DNA of 64,000 nucleotides from Tannerella sp. Lineage in GTDB: Bacteria; Bacteroidota; Bacteroidia; Bacteroidales; Tannerellaceae. Where the stretch lies: contig NZ_JBQNAZ010000007.1 of NCBI RefSeq assembly GCF_052170195.1, forward strand, positions 21,948 through 85,947, read 5' to 3'. The position numbers and the translations under genes were made by a program. Below the pieces are notes generated by a model. The model made no database searches. It saw nothing but the letters and a program-made list of their open reading frames with translations, and was not told the origin of the DNA. Position 1 is the first letter of the stretch; every line of letters starts with the position of its first letter. Below are positions 11,346 to 47,716 of this stretch, piece by piece.

Positions 11346-11386
11346 ATGAGTAAAATTACTCATTTTTGCATGAGTAAATTACTCAT
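11346..11386. promoter_or_regulatory. two tandem palindromes ATGAGTAA-N(1-2)-TTACTCAT, candidate operator pair
   Basis: 11346-11363 ATGAGTAAAATTACTCAT and 11370-11386 ATGAGTAAATTACTCAT. Each is followed by TTTTG, and both lie 23-63 bp upstream of the -7 box at 11316-11323. Confidence 0.45.
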
Positions 11387-11683
11387 TTTTGAGGAGGCAT
11401 TCTTCCCCTTCGTTGCGACAAGGATTTGTCTGACAAGCGTTACGAGAATATCTTTCTTTAAGTTTGTTGTTTTTCTGCTCTTACAAATCTAAAGTTGGAT
11501 TCTCCGAACGCAAATAACGCGAACGACGCAAAGGAAAAATAAAAGGAGTGAATAGTGAAAAACGAAAAGTGAAGCCTTTCGGACGTTTAGTCATTTTATT
11601 GTTTAAACAGTAAACATCTACAACAACTAAATATCCGAATGACTGACCGCTGAAAACTGATCGCTGAATGACAGTTTGCCGTA

Positions 11684-23534: not shown

Positions 23535-23557
23535 TTACGCTCTCTTCTCATAAAAAG

Positions 23558-23593
23558 AGCCTGCCCCACACGCCGTTGGGGTGGGCTTTTTTT
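23558..23593 (+). terminator. rho-independent terminator of the SusC/D locus
   Basis: Stem AGCC-TG-CCCCA / TGGGG-TG-GGCT followed by a T7 run. Confidence 0.7.
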
Positions 23594-23990
23594 GTAAGAG
23601 CAGTGTTTTTAGAAACTTTCGTTTTCTGTCATTTTTAACATAATGGGATGCAGCGTTCGACCGCTTGGTTTCATCATATACTCGTTATGCGTATAATTTA
23701 TTTGGATATGTTAATAACTGGTTGAACTTATCCGAATCTCTTCGTTTAATACGATGGGTGATTTTTTTTGTATATGGCTGATAAAAAGATTGACAAGGTC
23801 GTTTGGGTTGTTTAATCTCCGCATAAAAATCGGAGAATATGGAAGTGGAAATGTTAGTAACAAGGTGAAAAATAGTAGTCGGTATGCAAGATAAAAAGAA
23901 AGACACAGACGTTAAAGCGGAATGATTATTGCTGATGGCAAACGATTATCTAAAGCAATAACCACGTTTCTAATCAAAAAAAACTATTTG

Positions 23991-23998: not shown

Positions 23999-24149
23999 TC
24001 GTATCATATTTAAAAACAAAAAGCTATGAAAAAAACAACTGACACAGTGTTCTACAAACTGATGCACCTCGCAAACCGCACCGGAGGCGCAGCGTAAAAG
24101 AAATATCCGGAACGCGGAAAGCAAGTATAAACTTTAAAAATAAAAAAAC

Positions 24150-24485
24150 ATGAAAGCAAAAAACATTTTATGGATAGCTTCCCTGCTTCTGTTGATGGCA
24201 GGAACGGGGTGTGAAGTAAATAAATTAGAGAGCTCCGAAGAGCTTGGTGCTCGGACAGCAGAGGGCATAATGGTTTATGAGAATCCTGCGACAGACGGCT
24301 GTGGTTGGCTTGTACAGATCAATAATAAACCTTATTTCCCGGTAAACTTGGCTGATGAATACAAAATCGATAAGTTAAAAGTGTCTGTCGATTATCAGTT
24401 ATTAGATTCGAAATTCACTTGTTGGCCGGGTAGATTAATACCTGAAATTAAAATCGTCTCCATCAAAAAGATTCAACAGCCATAG
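24150..24485 (+). CDS. hypothetical small lipoprotein
   Basis: 111 aa. Lipobox LLLLMAGTGCE. Visibly lower GC than the flanking core genes. I recognise no family. Confidence 0.55.
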   Translation: MKAKNILWIASLLLLMAGTGCEVNKLESSEELGARTAEGIMVYENPATDGCGWLVQINNKPYFPVNLADEYKIDKLKVSVDYQLLDSKFTCWPGRLIPEIKIVSIKKIQQP

Positions 24486-24513: not shown

Positions 24514-25131
24514 TTCCCGAACATGCCCAAAAGTATTCCCAAGGTCATCGGTGAGTATTTCCGAGCTTGTCAGCGAGTATTTCGGAAATACTTAACGGGT
24601 ATTTCGGAGCTTGTCGGCAGGTAGTTCCATTGCCACCCGACGGATGCCTCCGAGCTACCCGTCGGACGGTTCTTTATTACCCGTCGGGTAGCTCCGAACA
24701 TATCGACGAGTGATTCCGAAATACTCACCGATGACATCGGAACTACTTCGGGTACGTACCCGAACCACCCGACACCTGCTTCGGAACATATTCATGGGTG
24801 GCTCCGAACCGTATTAAATACCCCTCCGAACTATATTTAAGGTATTTCGGAATTATATTCCGGGTATTTCCGAACCTGATTTGGGTACGTTCCGAACCTA
24901 ATTCCGATACGTCTCAAACCACCCGTCGACAAGTTCCAAACCACCCATCGACAGGTTCCAAACTACCCGTCGATACGTTCCGAACGTATCGAAATACCCC
25001 TCCGAACCACCCGAAATCAGGTTCCGAACCGGTCATAATTTATTTCCGAACAGTATTAAATACCCTTCCGGACGTATCGAAATACCCTTCGGAACGTACC
25101 TGAATACCGTTCCGAACCACCCCCAAAGATT
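24514..25131. repeat. 22-bp-periodic array A (28 units) with TTC-N-GAA(C) core
   Basis: Core occurrences start at 24514, 24536, 24559, 24581, 24603, 24625, 24648, 24670, 24692, 24714, 24736, 24758, 24780, 24802, 24824, 24846, 24868, 24890, 24913, 24934, 24956, 24978, 25000, 25022, 25044, 25066, 25088 and 25110. Spacing is 22 bp, with a few compensating 21/23 steps. Confidence 0.9.
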
Positions 25132-25753
25132 ATTGGGAGGTGCTTTGCGTCATGATAAATTCGGGGGGCGCGATGTAGCCGATCGAACAGAGCGTGGCGT
25201 GCGGTGTGAGGGTTTCGCGGATCGACAGCCGTCTGAGTTGCGGATCGAACGAGACGATTTGCAGGTCGTTCCGCCAGTCGACCGCTCTTTTTCTCATCAT
25301 TTTAAATGCCGTTTCTTTCGCGCTCCAGCAAATTAACAACGTTTCGGTATCGGGATATTGGCCGATCAGGCGTTGCTCCGCCTTGCCGAGAAAGCGATCG
25401 TACAGCTTGCGGATACGTTCGGAGCGGTATTCGATATCAATGCCGATGCGGGGTTGCGTATCGAGCAGTACGGCGGCATAGCCTTTCGTGTGCGAGATGC
25501 TGATGTGCAGGTCTGCATCGGGCAGGTAAGGAATGCCGTCGGGATGATAGGCGACGGGTGTTTCACGGCCGAGCATGGTTTTCAACAATGTGCGCACGGC
25601 CAGCCATTCCGTTTGGCGGGTATCGGACTTGCAACCGGCCAGAAACGGCACGTAATCGTCTTTGCGCGTCAGCAGAGCCAGTAATTCATCGCGGCTTTCT
25701 TCGATTTTCCAGATTCCTCGCAGAGGAGTCGTATATTCGGGCAGAACGGGCAT
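25130..25753 (-). CDS. 4'-phosphopantetheinyl transferase superfamily protein (Sfp-type)
   Basis: 207 aa. ISISHTKGYAAVLL, GIDIEY and WSAKETAFK are PPTase motifs. Confidence 0.8.
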   Translation of the reverse strand: MPVLPEYTTPLRGIWKIEESRDELLALLTRKDDYVPFLAGCKSDTRQTEWLAVRTLLKTMLGRETPVAYHPDGIPYLPDADLHISISHTKGYAAVLLDTQPRIGIDIEYRSERIRKLYDRFLGKAEQRLIGQYPDTETLLICWSAKETAFKMMRKRAVDWRNDLQIVSFDPQLRRLSIRETLTPHATLCSIGYIAPPEFIMTQSTSQ

Positions 25754-41397: not shown

Positions 41398-41778
41398 ATG
41401 AAAACTTTTGCTTTTAAGTCGTTTGTTACAATGTGGGTTTGCTTGCTTCCGTTTATTTCCGGATGCAAAAAAGACAATGAATCTTCCCTCGATAAGTTAA
41501 ATGTTTCAGTATGTGACGCTAAAAAACCGCAGTGGTTAGAAAAGGAAATCGCTTCCATTATACTCCGATCTTCAATATACAGGCCGACTCGTATTCTCGT
41601 CTATAGAGGCCCGGAAAAGGAAATCATAGCTATCGAAGATTCGACGAATTCGAGTATGGAACAGCAGCTTCGTTTTTTTGACTGTGCCGGAAACAAGGTA
41701 GCATTTAAAAGTGCCGAATATAATTCGTGCGTAGAAAAATGGAAGCGTCGCGAGTTTTCGTTATTATGGACGAATTAG
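41398..41778 (+). CDS. hypothetical lipoprotein
   Basis: 126 aa. Lipobox LLPFISGCK. Lower-GC gene. I recognise no family. Confidence 0.5.
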   Translation: MKTFAFKSFVTMWVCLLPFISGCKKDNESSLDKLNVSVCDAKKPQWLEKEIASIILRSSIYRPTRILVYRGPEKEIIAIEDSTNSSMEQQLRFFDCAGNKVAFKSAEYNSCVEKWKRREFSLLWTN

Positions 41779-41802: not shown

Positions 41803-42209
41803 TAAACCACCTATTAAGGATACGTTCCGAACGTATTTTGGGTACGTTTGGAACGTCATTTAGGGTATTTCCGAATTATATTTCGGGTAGTTCGGAACCT
41901 GATTTGGGTACGTTCCGAACCTAATTCAGATACGTTCTGAGCTACCCTGTGATACGTTCGGAACGTATTTCAGGTACGTTCCGAACCACCCGTCGATACG
42001 TTCCGGACGTACCTAAATATCCCTCCGAACCACCCGGAATCAGGTTCCGAACAGGTCATAATCTATTTCCAAACAGTATTAAATACCCCTCGGAACGTAC
42101 CGAAATACCGTTCTGAACGTACCTGAATATCTTTTTGGACGCACCCGAATACCGTTTGGAACGTATCGAAAGATCCTTCCGAACCCGTTAGAACCTGTTA
42201 CCGAACGGA
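41803..42209. repeat. 22-bp-periodic array B (19 units), homologous and collinear with array A
   Basis: Cores start at 41803 (degenerate), 41825, 41847, 41869, 41891, 41913, 41935, 41957, 41979, 42001, 42023, 42045, 42067, 42089, 42111, 42133, 42155, 42177 and 42199, exactly 22 bp apart. Confidence 0.9.
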
Positions 42210-43367
42210 CTATTTCTTTGCTTTATACTTCATGACAACGAGCACGGGATTCGCATCTTCGTCCAATTGTGCGGCAATGTCCTTGAGTGGGCCTTTCAGC
42301 TCATCTTTTTCATACGCTTCAACAAGCTGATCGGCTGTCAGTATATTGAATGCCGCGATTGTGCCGTTTACAGGGTTTGAATTCATATTCACTTCATGCT
42401 TGTCGTAATCGGCATTGAATACGGTCGCGCGGTATAGGGCTTTTTCTTCCGTATCATACATCAAATCGGTTCTTGGAAATCCATTTCCGGTCGTGAAATC
42501 AAATTCTTTCTTAATCGTTTGCAGAAAATAATAACGGTCGGTCATCGTGCCCATCGTAAGGAGTATCTGAGGATCTTCGGAGGCGGTTTTTACTAAAAAC
42601 GGACGGATGGTGTTTCCTTCCGACAAATAAACCGTATCGGTCGATGTTTCGATAAGCAGAAACTTGTCGTGCCAAGGCACTATCGATTGGATGGTATTTA
42701 TAGCAATGCCTTCTTTCTGTATAAGAGGCGCTTTGACAATTTCGAAAGGAATCGGAATCTTCCGTGTCACGCTCCCGTCCTGCTTCGAAATAATGGCGTG
42801 AGAGGACCGGCCTTCCGAAGGCATTCCTTCCTTATAGTATATGGACATGTCATAGCTAATCAGATGTTCCCTGTCATAATTGAAGAGAACCGAATACGAA
42901 GCGCTGTCCGCGTGGTTGAAACTCCGTTTGAAACGACCTTCCAAGTCATACACGAATATTTTCCTCATGGGCATGCAATTGACAAACATTTCGTCATTGG
43001 CTTCGTCCAGTACGATTCGGTAGATGGATGTATATTCTTCGGCTCCTTGTCCTTTTCTGTTTATTTTTCTGATGCCTTTTCCCGTTTGTCGGTCAAAGAG
43101 AAAAATATCGCCGTCGGGTGTTCGGTTTTTGGCTAAAATGTACCGGTCACCGATGTCCAGCACATAGCCTTGGGTGATGAATTCATCGCTCGTTTCGAGC
43201 GGAATATATTCCACTTCCAGAATATCCTGAAGCATCAGTTTTTTCTCCGGATAATCGGCATGCACATCGACTGTGATGATCCCGGTTTCTTTTTCTTGAT
43301 GGCTGTTTCCACATCCGGCACATAAAGCCATTAGAAAGACGGATGCAATGATTTTTTTTCCTTTCAT
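42210..43367 (-). CDS. 6-bladed beta-propeller-type lipoprotein (BF3164-like family), function unknown
   Basis: MKGKKIIASVFLMALCAGCGN has a lipobox. The start ...VDVHADYPEKKLMLQDILEVEYIPLETSDEF resembles the Bacteroides 6-bladed beta-propeller lipoprotein family as I recall it. ATG 43367 was chosen. Confidence 0.6.
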   Translation of the reverse strand: MKGKKIIASVFLMALCAGCGNSHQEKETGIITVDVHADYPEKKLMLQDILEVEYIPLETSDEFITQGYVLDIGDRYILAKNRTPDGDIFLFDRQTGKGIRKINRKGQGAEEYTSIYRIVLDEANDEMFVNCMPMRKIFVYDLEGRFKRSFNHADSASYSVLFNYDREHLISYDMSIYYKEGMPSEGRSSHAIISKQDGSVTRKIPIPFEIVKAPLIQKEGIAINTIQSIVPWHDKFLLIETSTDTVYLSEGNTIRPFLVKTASEDPQILLTMGTMTDRYYFLQTIKKEFDFTTGNGFPRTDLMYDTEEKALYRATVFNADYDKHEVNMNSNPVNGTIAAFNILTADQLVEAYEKDELKGPLKDIAAQLDEDANPVLVVMKYKAKK

Positions 43368-43683
43368 GATATTTCTTGTTTTGATCGTTGTGTGCGCAAA
43401 GATAACAAGTTTTTGCGGAGTCGGCAGTCTTTGTGAATGCATAAATTCAGATTTTCTCAAGATATTTTGCCCACCTCCCAAAGATGAAGTATAAGGTGGA
43501 AATTGAAAGAATTACCGGGCATAAGAAGTATTGAGGGGGGAGCGAATTATAGATATGTAAGGAAATGAGTTCAGAGAGGAATTTTGGTCGCTTTGCAAGG
43601 AATGTTTTTGTCATTTAACAAACACTTGAGAAGAAGTAATAATCACTTAGGCCTAAATGATAGGTTTTAATTAAAAAATCATG

Positions 43684-43691
43684 TACCTTTG
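43684..43691 (+). promoter_or_regulatory. -7 box (TACCTTTG) upstream of ftsY
   Basis: TAccTTTG lies 29 nt upstream of ATG 43720. Confidence 0.5.
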
Positions 43692-43719
43692 TAGCCAGAA
43701 CATATATTATTAGTAAGCA

Positions 43720-46047: not shown

Positions 46048-46338
46048 ATGAAAAATATAGAATTGATCAGTGAATTATCGAACCGACTTCGTTGGGAGCA
46101 GGAAGAGACAGAACGAATGCTGGATGCTTTCTGTGAGGTCTTAGGTGATAAACTTGCAAGTAACGATATCGTCAGTTTGCATGGATTGGGACAGTTCGAA
46201 GCGAAGAAAAAAGACGAACGCTTTTTAGCCAATCCGAGCAACAGCAAACGTTATCTTATCCCTCCTAAACTCGTACCTGTTTTTAAACCGGTTGCAACAT
46301 TAAAGTCGTATTTAAAAACATTAGACAGCCATGGATGA
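46048..46338 (+). CDS. HU/IHF-like DNA-binding protein (divergent paralogue)
   Basis: MKNIELISELSNRL...LHGLGQFEAKKKDERFLANPSNSKRYLIPPKLVPVFKP has the HU-fold pattern. Confidence 0.75.
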   Translation: MKNIELISELSNRLRWEQEETERMLDAFCEVLGDKLASNDIVSLHGLGQFEAKKKDERFLANPSNSKRYLIPPKLVPVFKPVATLKSYLKTLDSHG

Positions 46339-47716
46339 AAAATTATCGATCTACGATATCTCCGAAATCCTGACGGCAAAGACCGGCAGAGAGAAGGCAG
46401 ACATTGAGACGTTTGTTGAAACGTTGATTGCGGTAATCAACGAGGCAATTACCCGCAACGGGTTTGTAAGAATAAAAGGAATCGGCAGTTTTAAAGTGAT
46501 TCTGGTTAAAGAACGTGAGAGCGTACATGTCAATACCGGCGAACGGATTGTCATTCCGGCGCATCACAAGCTGTCTTTCCTCCCCGATAAAATACTCAAA
46601 GAAAAGATTAATCGACCGTTTGCTTTTTTCGAAGCCATCGAAGCCAATGAAACGGAGAACAGTGAAATGGACTCAGCCCGTCTCTCCAAAGATGACGAAG
46701 AGGATGAAAACGATGAGCTCATGACCGCGGAAGAACCGGTTCAGGAGCTTGTCGGAGAAGTTACGGAAACAACAGAAGATGTAGCTCCGAAACCCGAAGA
46801 AAATCCGGCCCCGCTTTCAGTACTTCCTTCTGAAGATGAAACAAAAGAAGAACAGAAAACTATGGATAAAGAAATCGACGAAGAATCCGACCGGGAATGG
46901 TCGGAAGAGCGTGCAATCGGGAGCCATCCCGCCTCTGCCACGAACAGGGAAACATTACAAAGTACAATACCCATAAAACAAGAAGCCATGAATGAAGCAA
47001 AAGAACGTAAAGAGCAGCATGTGAACGAAACACCGAAATCTCATCCGGTCGCCAAGCCCGTTGTGAAGAAAAAGAAAAAAGAAACGTCGAATACCTCGCT
47101 GTATGTTATTCTGGCGTTGTTATTGTTGCTGTTAGGGGTGGGAATATTCTATTATTTCTACTATGATCGTTTATCGTACGAGGAGTTTAACAGCACAACA
47201 CAGCATACACAGACGACGGATGATTCGTTTCTTTTGCCCGGCGACTCCGCCGCGGTGCAAGAGTCAGAAAAAAGCGAAAACGTCGATACGTCCGGAGTGA
47301 CTGCTTCCGGAACGAACGAAAGTACCGCAACATCGCCGGTCGCTTCAACTTCGTCTACGCGGAAAGAGCAAACAGCTTCTACAGCATCGACATCATCCAA
47401 GAAAACAACTCCTCAACAGACGAAGCCAACAACAGGCACTTCCACCTCGTCGGATCATAACGTTATGGCACGTGTGAAAGTAGCATCGGGTGAGCGGTTA
47501 ACGTTGCTTGCGCAAAAATATTACGGGAATAAAGTCTTCTGGGTCTATATCTATGATTTCAACAAGGCCAAAATTTCCGACCCCGATCGCGTACCTGCGG
47601 GAATGGAAATTCTGATTCCGGCCAAAGAAGTATATGCGATTAATGCCCAAAGCAGCGCCTCCATTGCACAGGCAAAAGAATTACAGTCGAAGATCATGGC
47701 GAACAAGACAAAATAA
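46331..47716 (+). CDS. HU-like domain - acidic/ST-rich linker - TM helix - C-terminal LysM domain fusion protein
   Basis: N-terminus ...IKGIGSFKVILVKERESVHVNTGERIVIPAHHKLSFLP (HU fold), KKKKKETSNTS followed by the TM segment LYVILALLLLLLGVGIFYYFYY, and C-terminus VKVASGERLTLLAQKYYGNKVFWVYIYDFNK...VPAGMEILIP (LysM). 8-nt overlap with the upstream HU gene. Confidence 0.75.
   Translation: MDEKLSIYDISEILTAKTGREKADIETFVETLIAVINEAITRNGFVRIKGIGSFKVILVKERESVHVNTGERIVIPAHHKLSFLPDKILKEKINRPFAFFEAIEANETENSEMDSARLSKDDEEDENDELMTAEEPVQELVGEVTETTEDVAPKPEENPAPLSVLPSEDETKEEQKTMDKEIDEESDREWSEERAIGSHPASATNRETLQSTIPIKQEAMNEAKERKEQHVNETPKSHPVAKPVVKKKKKETSNTSLYVILALLLLLLGVGIFYYFYYDRLSYEEFNSTTQHTQTTDDSFLLPGDSAAVQESEKSENVDTSGVTASGTNESTATSPVASTSSTRKEQTASTASTSSKKTTPQQTKPTTGTSTSSDHNVMARVKVASGERLTLLAQKYYGNKVFWVYIYDFNKAKISDPDRVPAGMEILIPAKEVYAINAQSSASIAQAKELQSKIMANKTK

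Follow-up and report, generated by a model that had tools for sequence, protein, structure and literature searches.

Repetitive extragenic palindromic sequences and bacterial interspersed mosaic elements (REP/BIME) of Enterobacteria and Pseudomonas are imperfect palindromes of 20-40 nt, usually alternating in orientation, which are dispersed in hundreds of copies with a cognate RAYT transposase and for which mRNA stabilisation and binding of gyrase or IHF have been proposed as roles. In the Neisseria intergenic mosaic elements (NIME), dRS3 repeats flank variable RS segments and serve as integration sites for mobile elements. The iterons and centromeres of plasmids (the 22-bp iterons of R6K, sopC of F, parC of R1 and pSK41) consist of 4-12 well-conserved units beside rep or par genes. 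BrickBuilt is a minisatellite embedded in a transposable element of the miniature inverted-repeat type (MITE) that Porphyromonas gingivalis and P. gulae carry (Klein et al., 2015; PMC4596501). Its unit is 23 nt long (AGACCATAGTATCCTCTCATATG), and it also has a unique leader and a unique tail, IS5-type 12-bp terminal inverted repeats (TIRs; GAGACCTTTGCA) and target-site duplications (TSDs), and both TIRs are retained in only 4 of 19 copies, many copies being without one or both (PMC4596501). Here we describe array A, a tandem array at positions 24514-25131 of a 64,000-nucleotide stretch of Tannerella sp. DNA (contig NZ_JBQNAZ010000007.1; the whole stretch is called the window below), and compare it with these systems.

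We regard array A as probably one copy of an undescribed, dispersed family of 22-bp minisatellites that is non-coding, hypervariable, largely dispensable and near-neutral, that is, selfish or structural DNA. Apart from traces in other Bacteroidales, its copies are restricted to a Tannerella sub-lineage, and it has no description in Rfam or in the searchable literature on Tannerella repeats, 22-bp Bacteroides repeats and the core motif; it is best explained as a sequence-novel family of the same kind as the bacterial intergenic repeats BrickBuilt, BIME and NIME. An earlier analysis of the same DNA (the original prediction) had offered four candidate functions, namely a selfish minisatellite, a phased binding array, a rut-like terminator or insulator and a structured RNA, among which the first fits the evidence best.

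Structure of the arrays

Array A, to which no strand is assigned, consists of 28 head-to-tail units of 22 bp, as defined by autocorrelation, Tandem Repeats Finder (TRF), core anchors and a sequence logo. Each unit has an 8-bp near-palindromic core, TTCSGAAC (S, C or G), and a 14-bp spacer, and can be written as TTCCGAAC followed by N14. Autocorrelation of 24514-25131 gives an identity of 0.567 at lag 22, with harmonics at 44, 66, 88 and 110, against 0.256±0.023 (maximum 0.354) for random 618-bp segments of the window, and TRF independently returns period 22 in six overlapping stretches. Anchoring on the core yields exactly 28 phased positions, from 24515 to 25110. The predicted period and unit number are thus confirmed, as are the predicted boundaries: the array extends from about 30 bp past the stop codon of an open reading frame (ORF) at 24150-24485 (+) up to the stop codon of a 4'-phosphopantetheinyl transferase (PPTase) ORF at 25130-25753 (-). 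The steps are 21, 23, 22, 22, 22 and 23 bp and then 22 bp for the remaining 21, so that three deviate (21, 23, 23) where five had been counted, a number that varies with the placement chosen for degenerate cores. Relative to TTCNGAAC, 21 of the 28 cores have at most one mismatch, three have two and four are degenerate, with four mismatches at 24625 and three each at 24670 and 24912. Three YTCSGAA cores (Y, C or T) spaced at 22 bp occur 10 times in the window and not once in 100 shuffles, and every window match to this phased pattern falls within array A or within a second array, array B.

Array B (41822-42209; TRF, alignments, anchors) has 18 units, without any deviation from the 22-bp step, and lies between convergent genes at 41398-41778 (+) and 42210-43481 (-). 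It is a paralogue of the right arm of array A, with which it is colinear unit for unit over about 330 bp; the two are therefore copies of one composite element and not satellites that grew independently. The right arm of array A (24780-25131, 16 units), also colinear with a copy at another Tannerella locus (L079), is C-rich on the plus strand: the GC skew falls to -0.48, and the original prediction was exact in its count for 25000-25065, 20 C against 9 G. The left arm (24514-24779), delimited by alignments, blastn and composition, contains about 12 GRGTAKTTCSGA-type units with near-zero skew and is found in the orthologues L338 and L056 as well as in L344, being missing from array B. The best-conserved part is a five-unit module at 24973-25085, ATACGTTCCGAAC...GGTTCCGAACCGGTCATAAT...AGTATTAAATACCC, which is common to all copies of the family.

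Core positions of the unit carry 1-1.8 bits of information and spacer positions about 0.1-0.5 bits, with the exception of unit positions 12, always a pyrimidine, and 16, a purine; the spacer, described in the original prediction as variable, is thus not free. The predicted TTC-N-GAA dyad is present in the core and is asymmetric: C occurs at +4 in 39 of 46 units and G at -4 in only 22 of 46. Except at k=5 (p=0.013), the bases that flank TTC/GAA are complementary across the dyad no more often than expected by chance, and hairpins of individual units were rejected as an explanation for this reason. The 44 spacers fall into two clusters (18 and 15 members) and a few small groups, in line with the few recurring classes predicted, and are connected by 70 similarity links against 0.2 in shuffles, 16 of which join reverse complements. 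Cores differ from the consensus by about 13%, and spacers of one class differ pairwise by at most about 27%. Descent from a few ancestral unit types with a common core, after which core and spacer diverged to similar degrees, removes most of the apparent paradox of a conserved core beside a saturated spacer. A further peculiarity is a strong excess of C↔G changes at the centre of the dyad, where they account for 12 of 23 changes, compared with 18 of 222 at other positions (odds ratio 12, p=7e-7); the events are partly common to several comparisons and perhaps 8-9 in independent number. Since inversion of the palindrome centre converts TTCCGAA into TTCGGAA and vice versa, template switching at a hairpin or cruciform could explain these flips, which would be a natural record of palindrome-mediated switching, and it would likewise explain the reverse-complement spacer classes.

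Copies, alleles and divergence

BLASTN finds homologues of array A at the orthologous PPTase locus in L056 and L338, at a different locus of the COT-023 genome directly upstream of a gene for a 996-aa sensor-like protein (L079), and, as a short copy with an internal deletion, on a metagenome contig (L344). The array B locus of another strain is represented by L352, whose flanks are 98.6% identical. Looser relatives occur on an uncultured Tannerella contig (L105) and on three IMG/VR contigs (L127, L176, L182). The family breaks short-read assemblies: three independent contigs (L120, L337, L339) end 90-160 bp inside array A, as expected if those genomes hold near-identical sequence elsewhere, and an exact-protein look-up for the PPTase returned one other contig, broken inside the array. 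A metagenome scan with a family-specific 18-base module gave 14 matches, two of them real. The contexts of the copies are mixed, including convergent, tandem and divergent genes, positions upstream of a gene and a position behind a gene that has its own terminator. Filling of convergent gaps, which the original prediction had emphasized, is thus not a property of the family. No neighbour gene recurs in an all-against-all BLASTP of 368 flanking ORFs from 27 arrays, in which only one integrase element was resampled.

That element is an integrative element on L127, L176 and L182 with two or three tyrosine integrases (Arm-DNA-bind_5 + Phage_integrase) that are 92-95% identical from contig to contig. 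About 300 bp separate the first integrase from a 22-bp TTCSGAAC array. The array sites linked to it are L127 3135-3430, L176 530-790, L182 1230-1400 and L105 174-380; both array flanks are common to L105, L176 and L182, and L127 has the integrase-side flank only, diverging within or after the array. The array may mark the edge or the integration target of this element. In other genomes, mosaics of further short dispersed motifs adjoin several arrays (L056 640-784, L344 4905-5356, L338 4420-5480). They comprise CAGTCAGC runs, runs of ATTGATAA and GTTGATT, and GTCATTCAGAGCGRAGCGATGAATCTC-type modules, none of which is present in the corresponding region of the window, and they indicate repeat-rich intergenic islands in those genomes.

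The arrays vary in length by whole units. The orthologous alleles of array A measure about 617 bp in the window, 415 bp in L338 and 325 bp in L056; compared with the window, L338 lacks exactly 154 bp (7×22) and has lost one further unit. Array B has 18, 16 or 4 units within one species. Two strains with flanks 98.6% identical differ there by two separate exact 22-bp indels and three substitutions, and two further assemblies of the species, in which the flanking protein is 99% identical, have kept no more than the final four units (88 bp), with the junction of the collapse at a TGGGTA direct repeat. A sister species has kept array B with two additional units. In distant Tannerella, whose PPTase is 62% and 57% identical, there is no array in the 48 and 87 bp past the PPTase stop codon. 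Tandem head-to-tail units in the 10-100-bp range, polymorphic in number at the same locus, are what defines a minisatellite or variable-number tandem repeat (VNTR) in general. With lengths not divisible by 3, the 22-bp and 154-bp indels cannot keep an ORF in frame, and no Pfam family covers the 101-aa ORF that the array contains. The arrays, which are non-coding as predicted, are therefore VNTRs, and the alleles of 4 to 18 units within one species provide a ready-made, high-resolution marker for strain typing.

How strongly are the arrays constrained? In seven orthologous and paralogous comparisons, none of them individually significant, the core has 0.116 substitutions per site and the spacer 0.117, and the ratio of transitions to transversions, 49 to 26 in the core and 108 to 47 in the spacer, reflects the same spectrum. 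Purifying selection on the core was rejected on account of these equal rates and spectra. The divergence of the arrays (0.13-0.16) is close to that of four-fold degenerate sites in the adjacent PPTase and GldD genes (0.14-0.22). Taken together, these values indicate near-neutral recent evolution.

Origin of the arrays and rival explanations

A history of the following kind would account for these data. The spacers would descend from a handful of ancestral types. Whole units have been added and deleted, with replication slippage or unequal recombination at the 8-bp cores and other short direct repeats as the probable cause, and larger deletions have occurred as well; blocks may also have been inverted and palindrome centres flipped, probably by template switching at hairpins or cruciforms. 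Copies of multi-unit blocks would have reached further intergenic sites ahead of the split between the sampled species. The arrays would then be tolerated selfish or structural DNA and not a sequence-specific regulatory device, and any effect on neighbouring genes, for example as a hairpin-rich spacer at 3' ends, would likely be incidental.

Several observations weigh against this near-neutral history. A purine occupies position -9 relative to the dyad centre, and a pyrimidine position +9, in 46 of 46 window units, and this R(-9)/Y(+9) rule (R, purine) is kept at 94-100% in every homologous array; it recurs in Bacteroidales 22-bp satellites with unrelated spacers (L069, UBA4336, KA00251, RUG14526), and recent changes at ±9 comprise 16 transitions and one transversion (p=0.04). 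The rule is not obviously predicted by a purely neutral history; it was spotted post hoc, in few independent lineages (about five across Bacteroidales). The five-unit module is 85-88% identical over about 100 bp in a Proteiniphilum metagenome-assembled genome (MAG; L075), an identity that implies horizontal spread or else constraint. Both window arrays fill convergent 3'-3' gaps that contain no other terminator, and other genes of the same organism carry canonical ones. In addition, the tests for constraint are few and partly non-independent, so that a rate reduction below about 25% could escape them. The ±9 rule is also the best evidence for recognition of double-stranded DNA by a dimer, and a phased array of binding sites for a dimeric protein, each a dyad of about 19 bp (R-N5-TTC-S-GAA-N5-Y), is possible if rather unlikely. 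Such sites, at 22 bp or about two helical turns, would allow the dimers to stack into a filament, by analogy with partition centromeres, arrays of iterons and the REP/BIME sites to which nucleoid proteins bind. The dyad core in its rigid register is consistent with this idea, and so are the lack of Watson-Crick complementarity between -9 and +9 (22 of 46 units against 23.4 expected, which is chance), pointing to a symmetry of sequence class and not of a hairpin, the recurrence of the rule beside unrelated spacers, and the motif TAT-TTCSGAA-G common to L069, UBA4336/RUG14526 and the left arm of the Tannerella array. Predicted sites of hybrid two-component systems (HTCS) in Bacteroides are likewise direct repeats about 21 bp apart on one face of the DNA (PMC3878776). 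On the other hand, the core changes as fast as the spacer and with the same spectrum, which argues against current constraint; array A has four badly degenerate cores among its 28; some strains have only four units of array B left, and array A is missing in distant Tannerella; DNA-binding, par and rep genes do not recur next to the arrays, which match no plasmid or phage by BLAST (72,556 plasmids); the Bacteroidales-wide support comes from those few lineages; and period 22 is not globally favoured for the core, since matched viral-contig scans give at least 120 loci for a period of 21 bp, 65 for 22 bp and 32 for 23 bp. The narrower proposal that TTCSGAA with R(-9)/Y(+9) every 22 bp is the operator of an abundant dimeric Bacteroidales protein, nucleoid-associated or partition-like, is unlikely. 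If it were correct, the Tannerella arrays and the L069, UBA4336/RUG14526 and KA00251 satellites would be chromosomal loading or structuring arrays, the C↔G flips would reflect cruciform extrusion at bound sites, and the arrays would point to a new chromosome-organising factor in Bacteroidales.

Mobility provides another explanation, in which the arrays are the internal minisatellite of a decayed non-autonomous transposon of the MITE or BrickBuilt type, with its ends lost and its enzyme encoded elsewhere. Colinear multi-unit copies at unlinked loci, the high identity of the Proteiniphilum copy, which suggests horizontal movement, the existence in a related oral genus of BrickBuilt composites, many of them without ends, and the related array at the edge of the tyrosine-integrase element would all agree with it. 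However, five copies have neither TIRs, as predicted (the best inverted terminal alignments score 9-12 and represent the palindromic core only), nor consistent TSDs (direct repeats at the flanks reach at most 3-5 bp and are different at each copy); the copies do not end alike and have no unique leader or tail in common, and the BrickBuilt unit and TIR are absent. No insertion with a clean empty site was captured: array A is missing in distant Tannerella, but the neighbouring gene differs there too, and the 88-bp allele of locus B is an internal deletion that left four units. A Pfam scan of 49 window ORFs revealed no transposase, integrase, recombinase, RAYT or Rep, and homologues of the array-linked integrases are found nowhere in the window, in accord with the prediction of no nearby recombinase. 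We therefore give a decayed transposon little credence. A terminator or insulator, in which hairpin-rich or C-rich, rut-like RNA stops read-through from both convergent genes, is improbable. It would suit the position of the window arrays in gaps without an intrinsic terminator, array A abutting both stop codons, together with the C>G skew of the right half, the strong foldback potential (folding energy very low against shuffles, z ~ -11 on both strands) and the use of canonical terminators elsewhere in the genome, such as the GC-rich hairpin and T-tract at 23555-23595 behind an AP-endonuclease-family gene. It is contradicted by copies upstream of genes, between tandem genes and behind a gene with its own terminator, by orientation, which is inconsistent across copies (the L344 array is inverted relative to its upstream gene), by the lack of enrichment of terminator-like and sigma-70-like sites inside arrays A and B, and by the near-complete deletion of array B, to natural alleles of only 88 bp, in two strains. 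The long-range pairing is not conserved either: in the longest inverted block 36-41 of 52 positions are paired, the changes between copies are mostly disruptive, and one arm of the helix is missing entirely in L338 and L344. These pairing data also make a structured non-coding RNA gene or cis-regulatory RNA, another of the predicted functions, exceedingly improbable. Its one attraction, the low folding energy, is a trivial consequence of the palindromic cores and inverted blocks; the window and eight homologous loci have no Rfam match at gathering thresholds and only two chance miRNA hits at E<=1, the consensus fold of the five-unit module (-9.7 kcal/mol) contains 0 compensatory pairs, and unit number varies freely. 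A conserved RNA fold was rejected on account of this absence of covariation. The minisatellite family of selfish or structural DNA is thus the explanation that we prefer.

Neighbouring features and comparison with known systems

The gene upstream of array A (24150-24485, +) encodes a small putative lipoprotein of 111 aa without a Pfam family; its L338 orthologue begins with a signal peptide followed by a cysteine. Downstream, the last unit directly adjoins the PPTase gene (25130-25753, -) at its stop codon. The PPTase ORF of the sister genome L338 (3001-3654) runs about 30 bp into the array and encodes 217 aa instead of the 207 aa in the window, and in L357, likewise a sister Tannerella genome, the gene caller places a 60-aa ORF wholly inside the array B orthologue; the repeat thus distorts gene calls. 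Array B is flanked by a gene for a DUF5128 six-bladed beta-propeller protein (42210-43481, -; Pfam scan). The surroundings are chromosomal, with the housekeeping genes for GldD, a CorC-type transporter, SSB and MutY, and the segment 25069-32036 matches Tannerella forsythia strain OH1426_COT-023 at 88%. Other features of these regions deserve mention. A tiny ORF, MKKTTDTVFYKLMHLANRTGGAA (24027-24097, +), lies upstream of the lipoprotein gene and keeps its N-terminus (M-K/E-KTTD) and C-terminus (NRTGGAA) in the orthologous L338 region; it is a candidate leader peptide or small-peptide gene. At 46331-47716 (+), 4 kb from array B, is a gene for a 461-aa protein in which an HU/IHF-type Bac_DNA_binding domain at the N-terminus is joined to a long C-terminal extension; the Bat aerotolerance operon (47.8-56.2 kb) comes next. 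L357 has a gene for a 282-aa Bro-N domain protein (1798-2646) between ftsY and the DUF5128 gene, at a position where the window has only a 238-bp gap (43482-43719). An intergenic site at 11346-11391 contains a 23-24-bp unit, ATGAGTAAAATTACTCATTTTTGC, twice in tandem and with its own palindrome, GAGTAAAATTACTC.

Similar arrays occur in other bacteria. A cross-phylum superfamily of TTCSGAA 22-bp arrays (119 loci in many phyla) was considered and rejected, because the query pattern itself selects such arrays. The controls at periods 21, 22 and 23 indicate that 22 bp is not globally special, and no universal class is claimed; a weak suggestion of one is kept at the level of Bacteroidales only. Actinophytocola and Saccharothrix (L037, L063, L078, L093-L095, L103) contain many 22-bp arrays with a GTTCSGAAC core within CTCGCGGG...CCCGCGAG. 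Their dyad is longer and perfect, R and Y at ±9 are opposite, and higher-order periods of 44 or 66 bp are frequent; these arrays appear to be a family unrelated to the Tannerella one. The ±9 rule fails or is reversed in actinobacterial arrays and in most other controls. A MAG labelled Bacteroides fragilis (L069, 5651-6118) has a 22-unit array of GGTATTTCCGAAGTCCCCCTCA between genes, two of which encode C-terminal sorting domains of the type IX secretion system (T9SS). B. fragilis is not known to have a T9SS, and the bin may therefore be misassigned. BrickBuilt has likewise been reported near genes with C-terminal domains of the Por secretion system (PorSS-CTD).

Among the known systems, CRISPR resembles the Tannerella arrays in having a constant repeat and variable spacers at a fixed period. 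It differs in that its repeats measure at least about 23 nt, its spacers are unrelated to one another and cas genes accompany it, whereas the arrays have an 8-bp core and mutually related 14-bp spacers, both much too short for CRISPR, and the window contains no cas gene; the original prediction had rightly set CRISPR aside. Plasmid iterons and centromeres are also direct repeats phased at about two helical turns, some with dyad cores bound cooperatively by dimers, but the Tannerella arrays, with 18-28 diverged units, are chromosomal, dispersed and dispensable and have no rep or par neighbour. With REP/BIME the arrays share short palindromic units, an extragenic position, variable number and frequent location at 3' ends or between convergent genes; they differ in their head-to-tail arrangement, a palindrome of only 7-9 bp with non-complementary flanks and the lack of a RAYT in the window. 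NIME, too, alternate a constant short dyad-symmetric repeat with variable segments in intergenic regions, and the use of dRS3 as an integration site is paralleled by the integrase element beside the L127, L176 and L182 arrays. The periods of NIME are irregular, 70-170 bp with a 20-bp dRS3, in contrast to the rigid 22 bp and the 8-bp core found here.

BrickBuilt was named in the original prediction as the closest analogue, which holds for behaviour and not for membership. Membership in BrickBuilt was rejected on the unit, the period, the leader and tail and the TIRs. Its period is 23 instead of 22 bp, and its unit is non-palindromic and unrelated in sequence, with 0 matches at up to 3 mismatches; the TIR motif has 2 sites at 2 mismatches against 4.3 expected, neither of them near an array. 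BrickBuilt units are about 95% identical, whereas Tannerella units share only the core, and the leader and tail, TIRs and TSDs are absent from the Tannerella arrays. In behaviour, by contrast, the two are alike: both are strictly intergenic in an oral Bacteroidales host, consist of gapless head-to-tail units of about 22-23 nt, occur at many dispersed loci with about 1-23 units per locus, expand and contract by whole units between strains, form long predicted stem-loops without an Rfam match and contain spurious hypothetical ORFs. An undescribed repeat family is thus documented in Tannerella, a genus of periodontal relevance.

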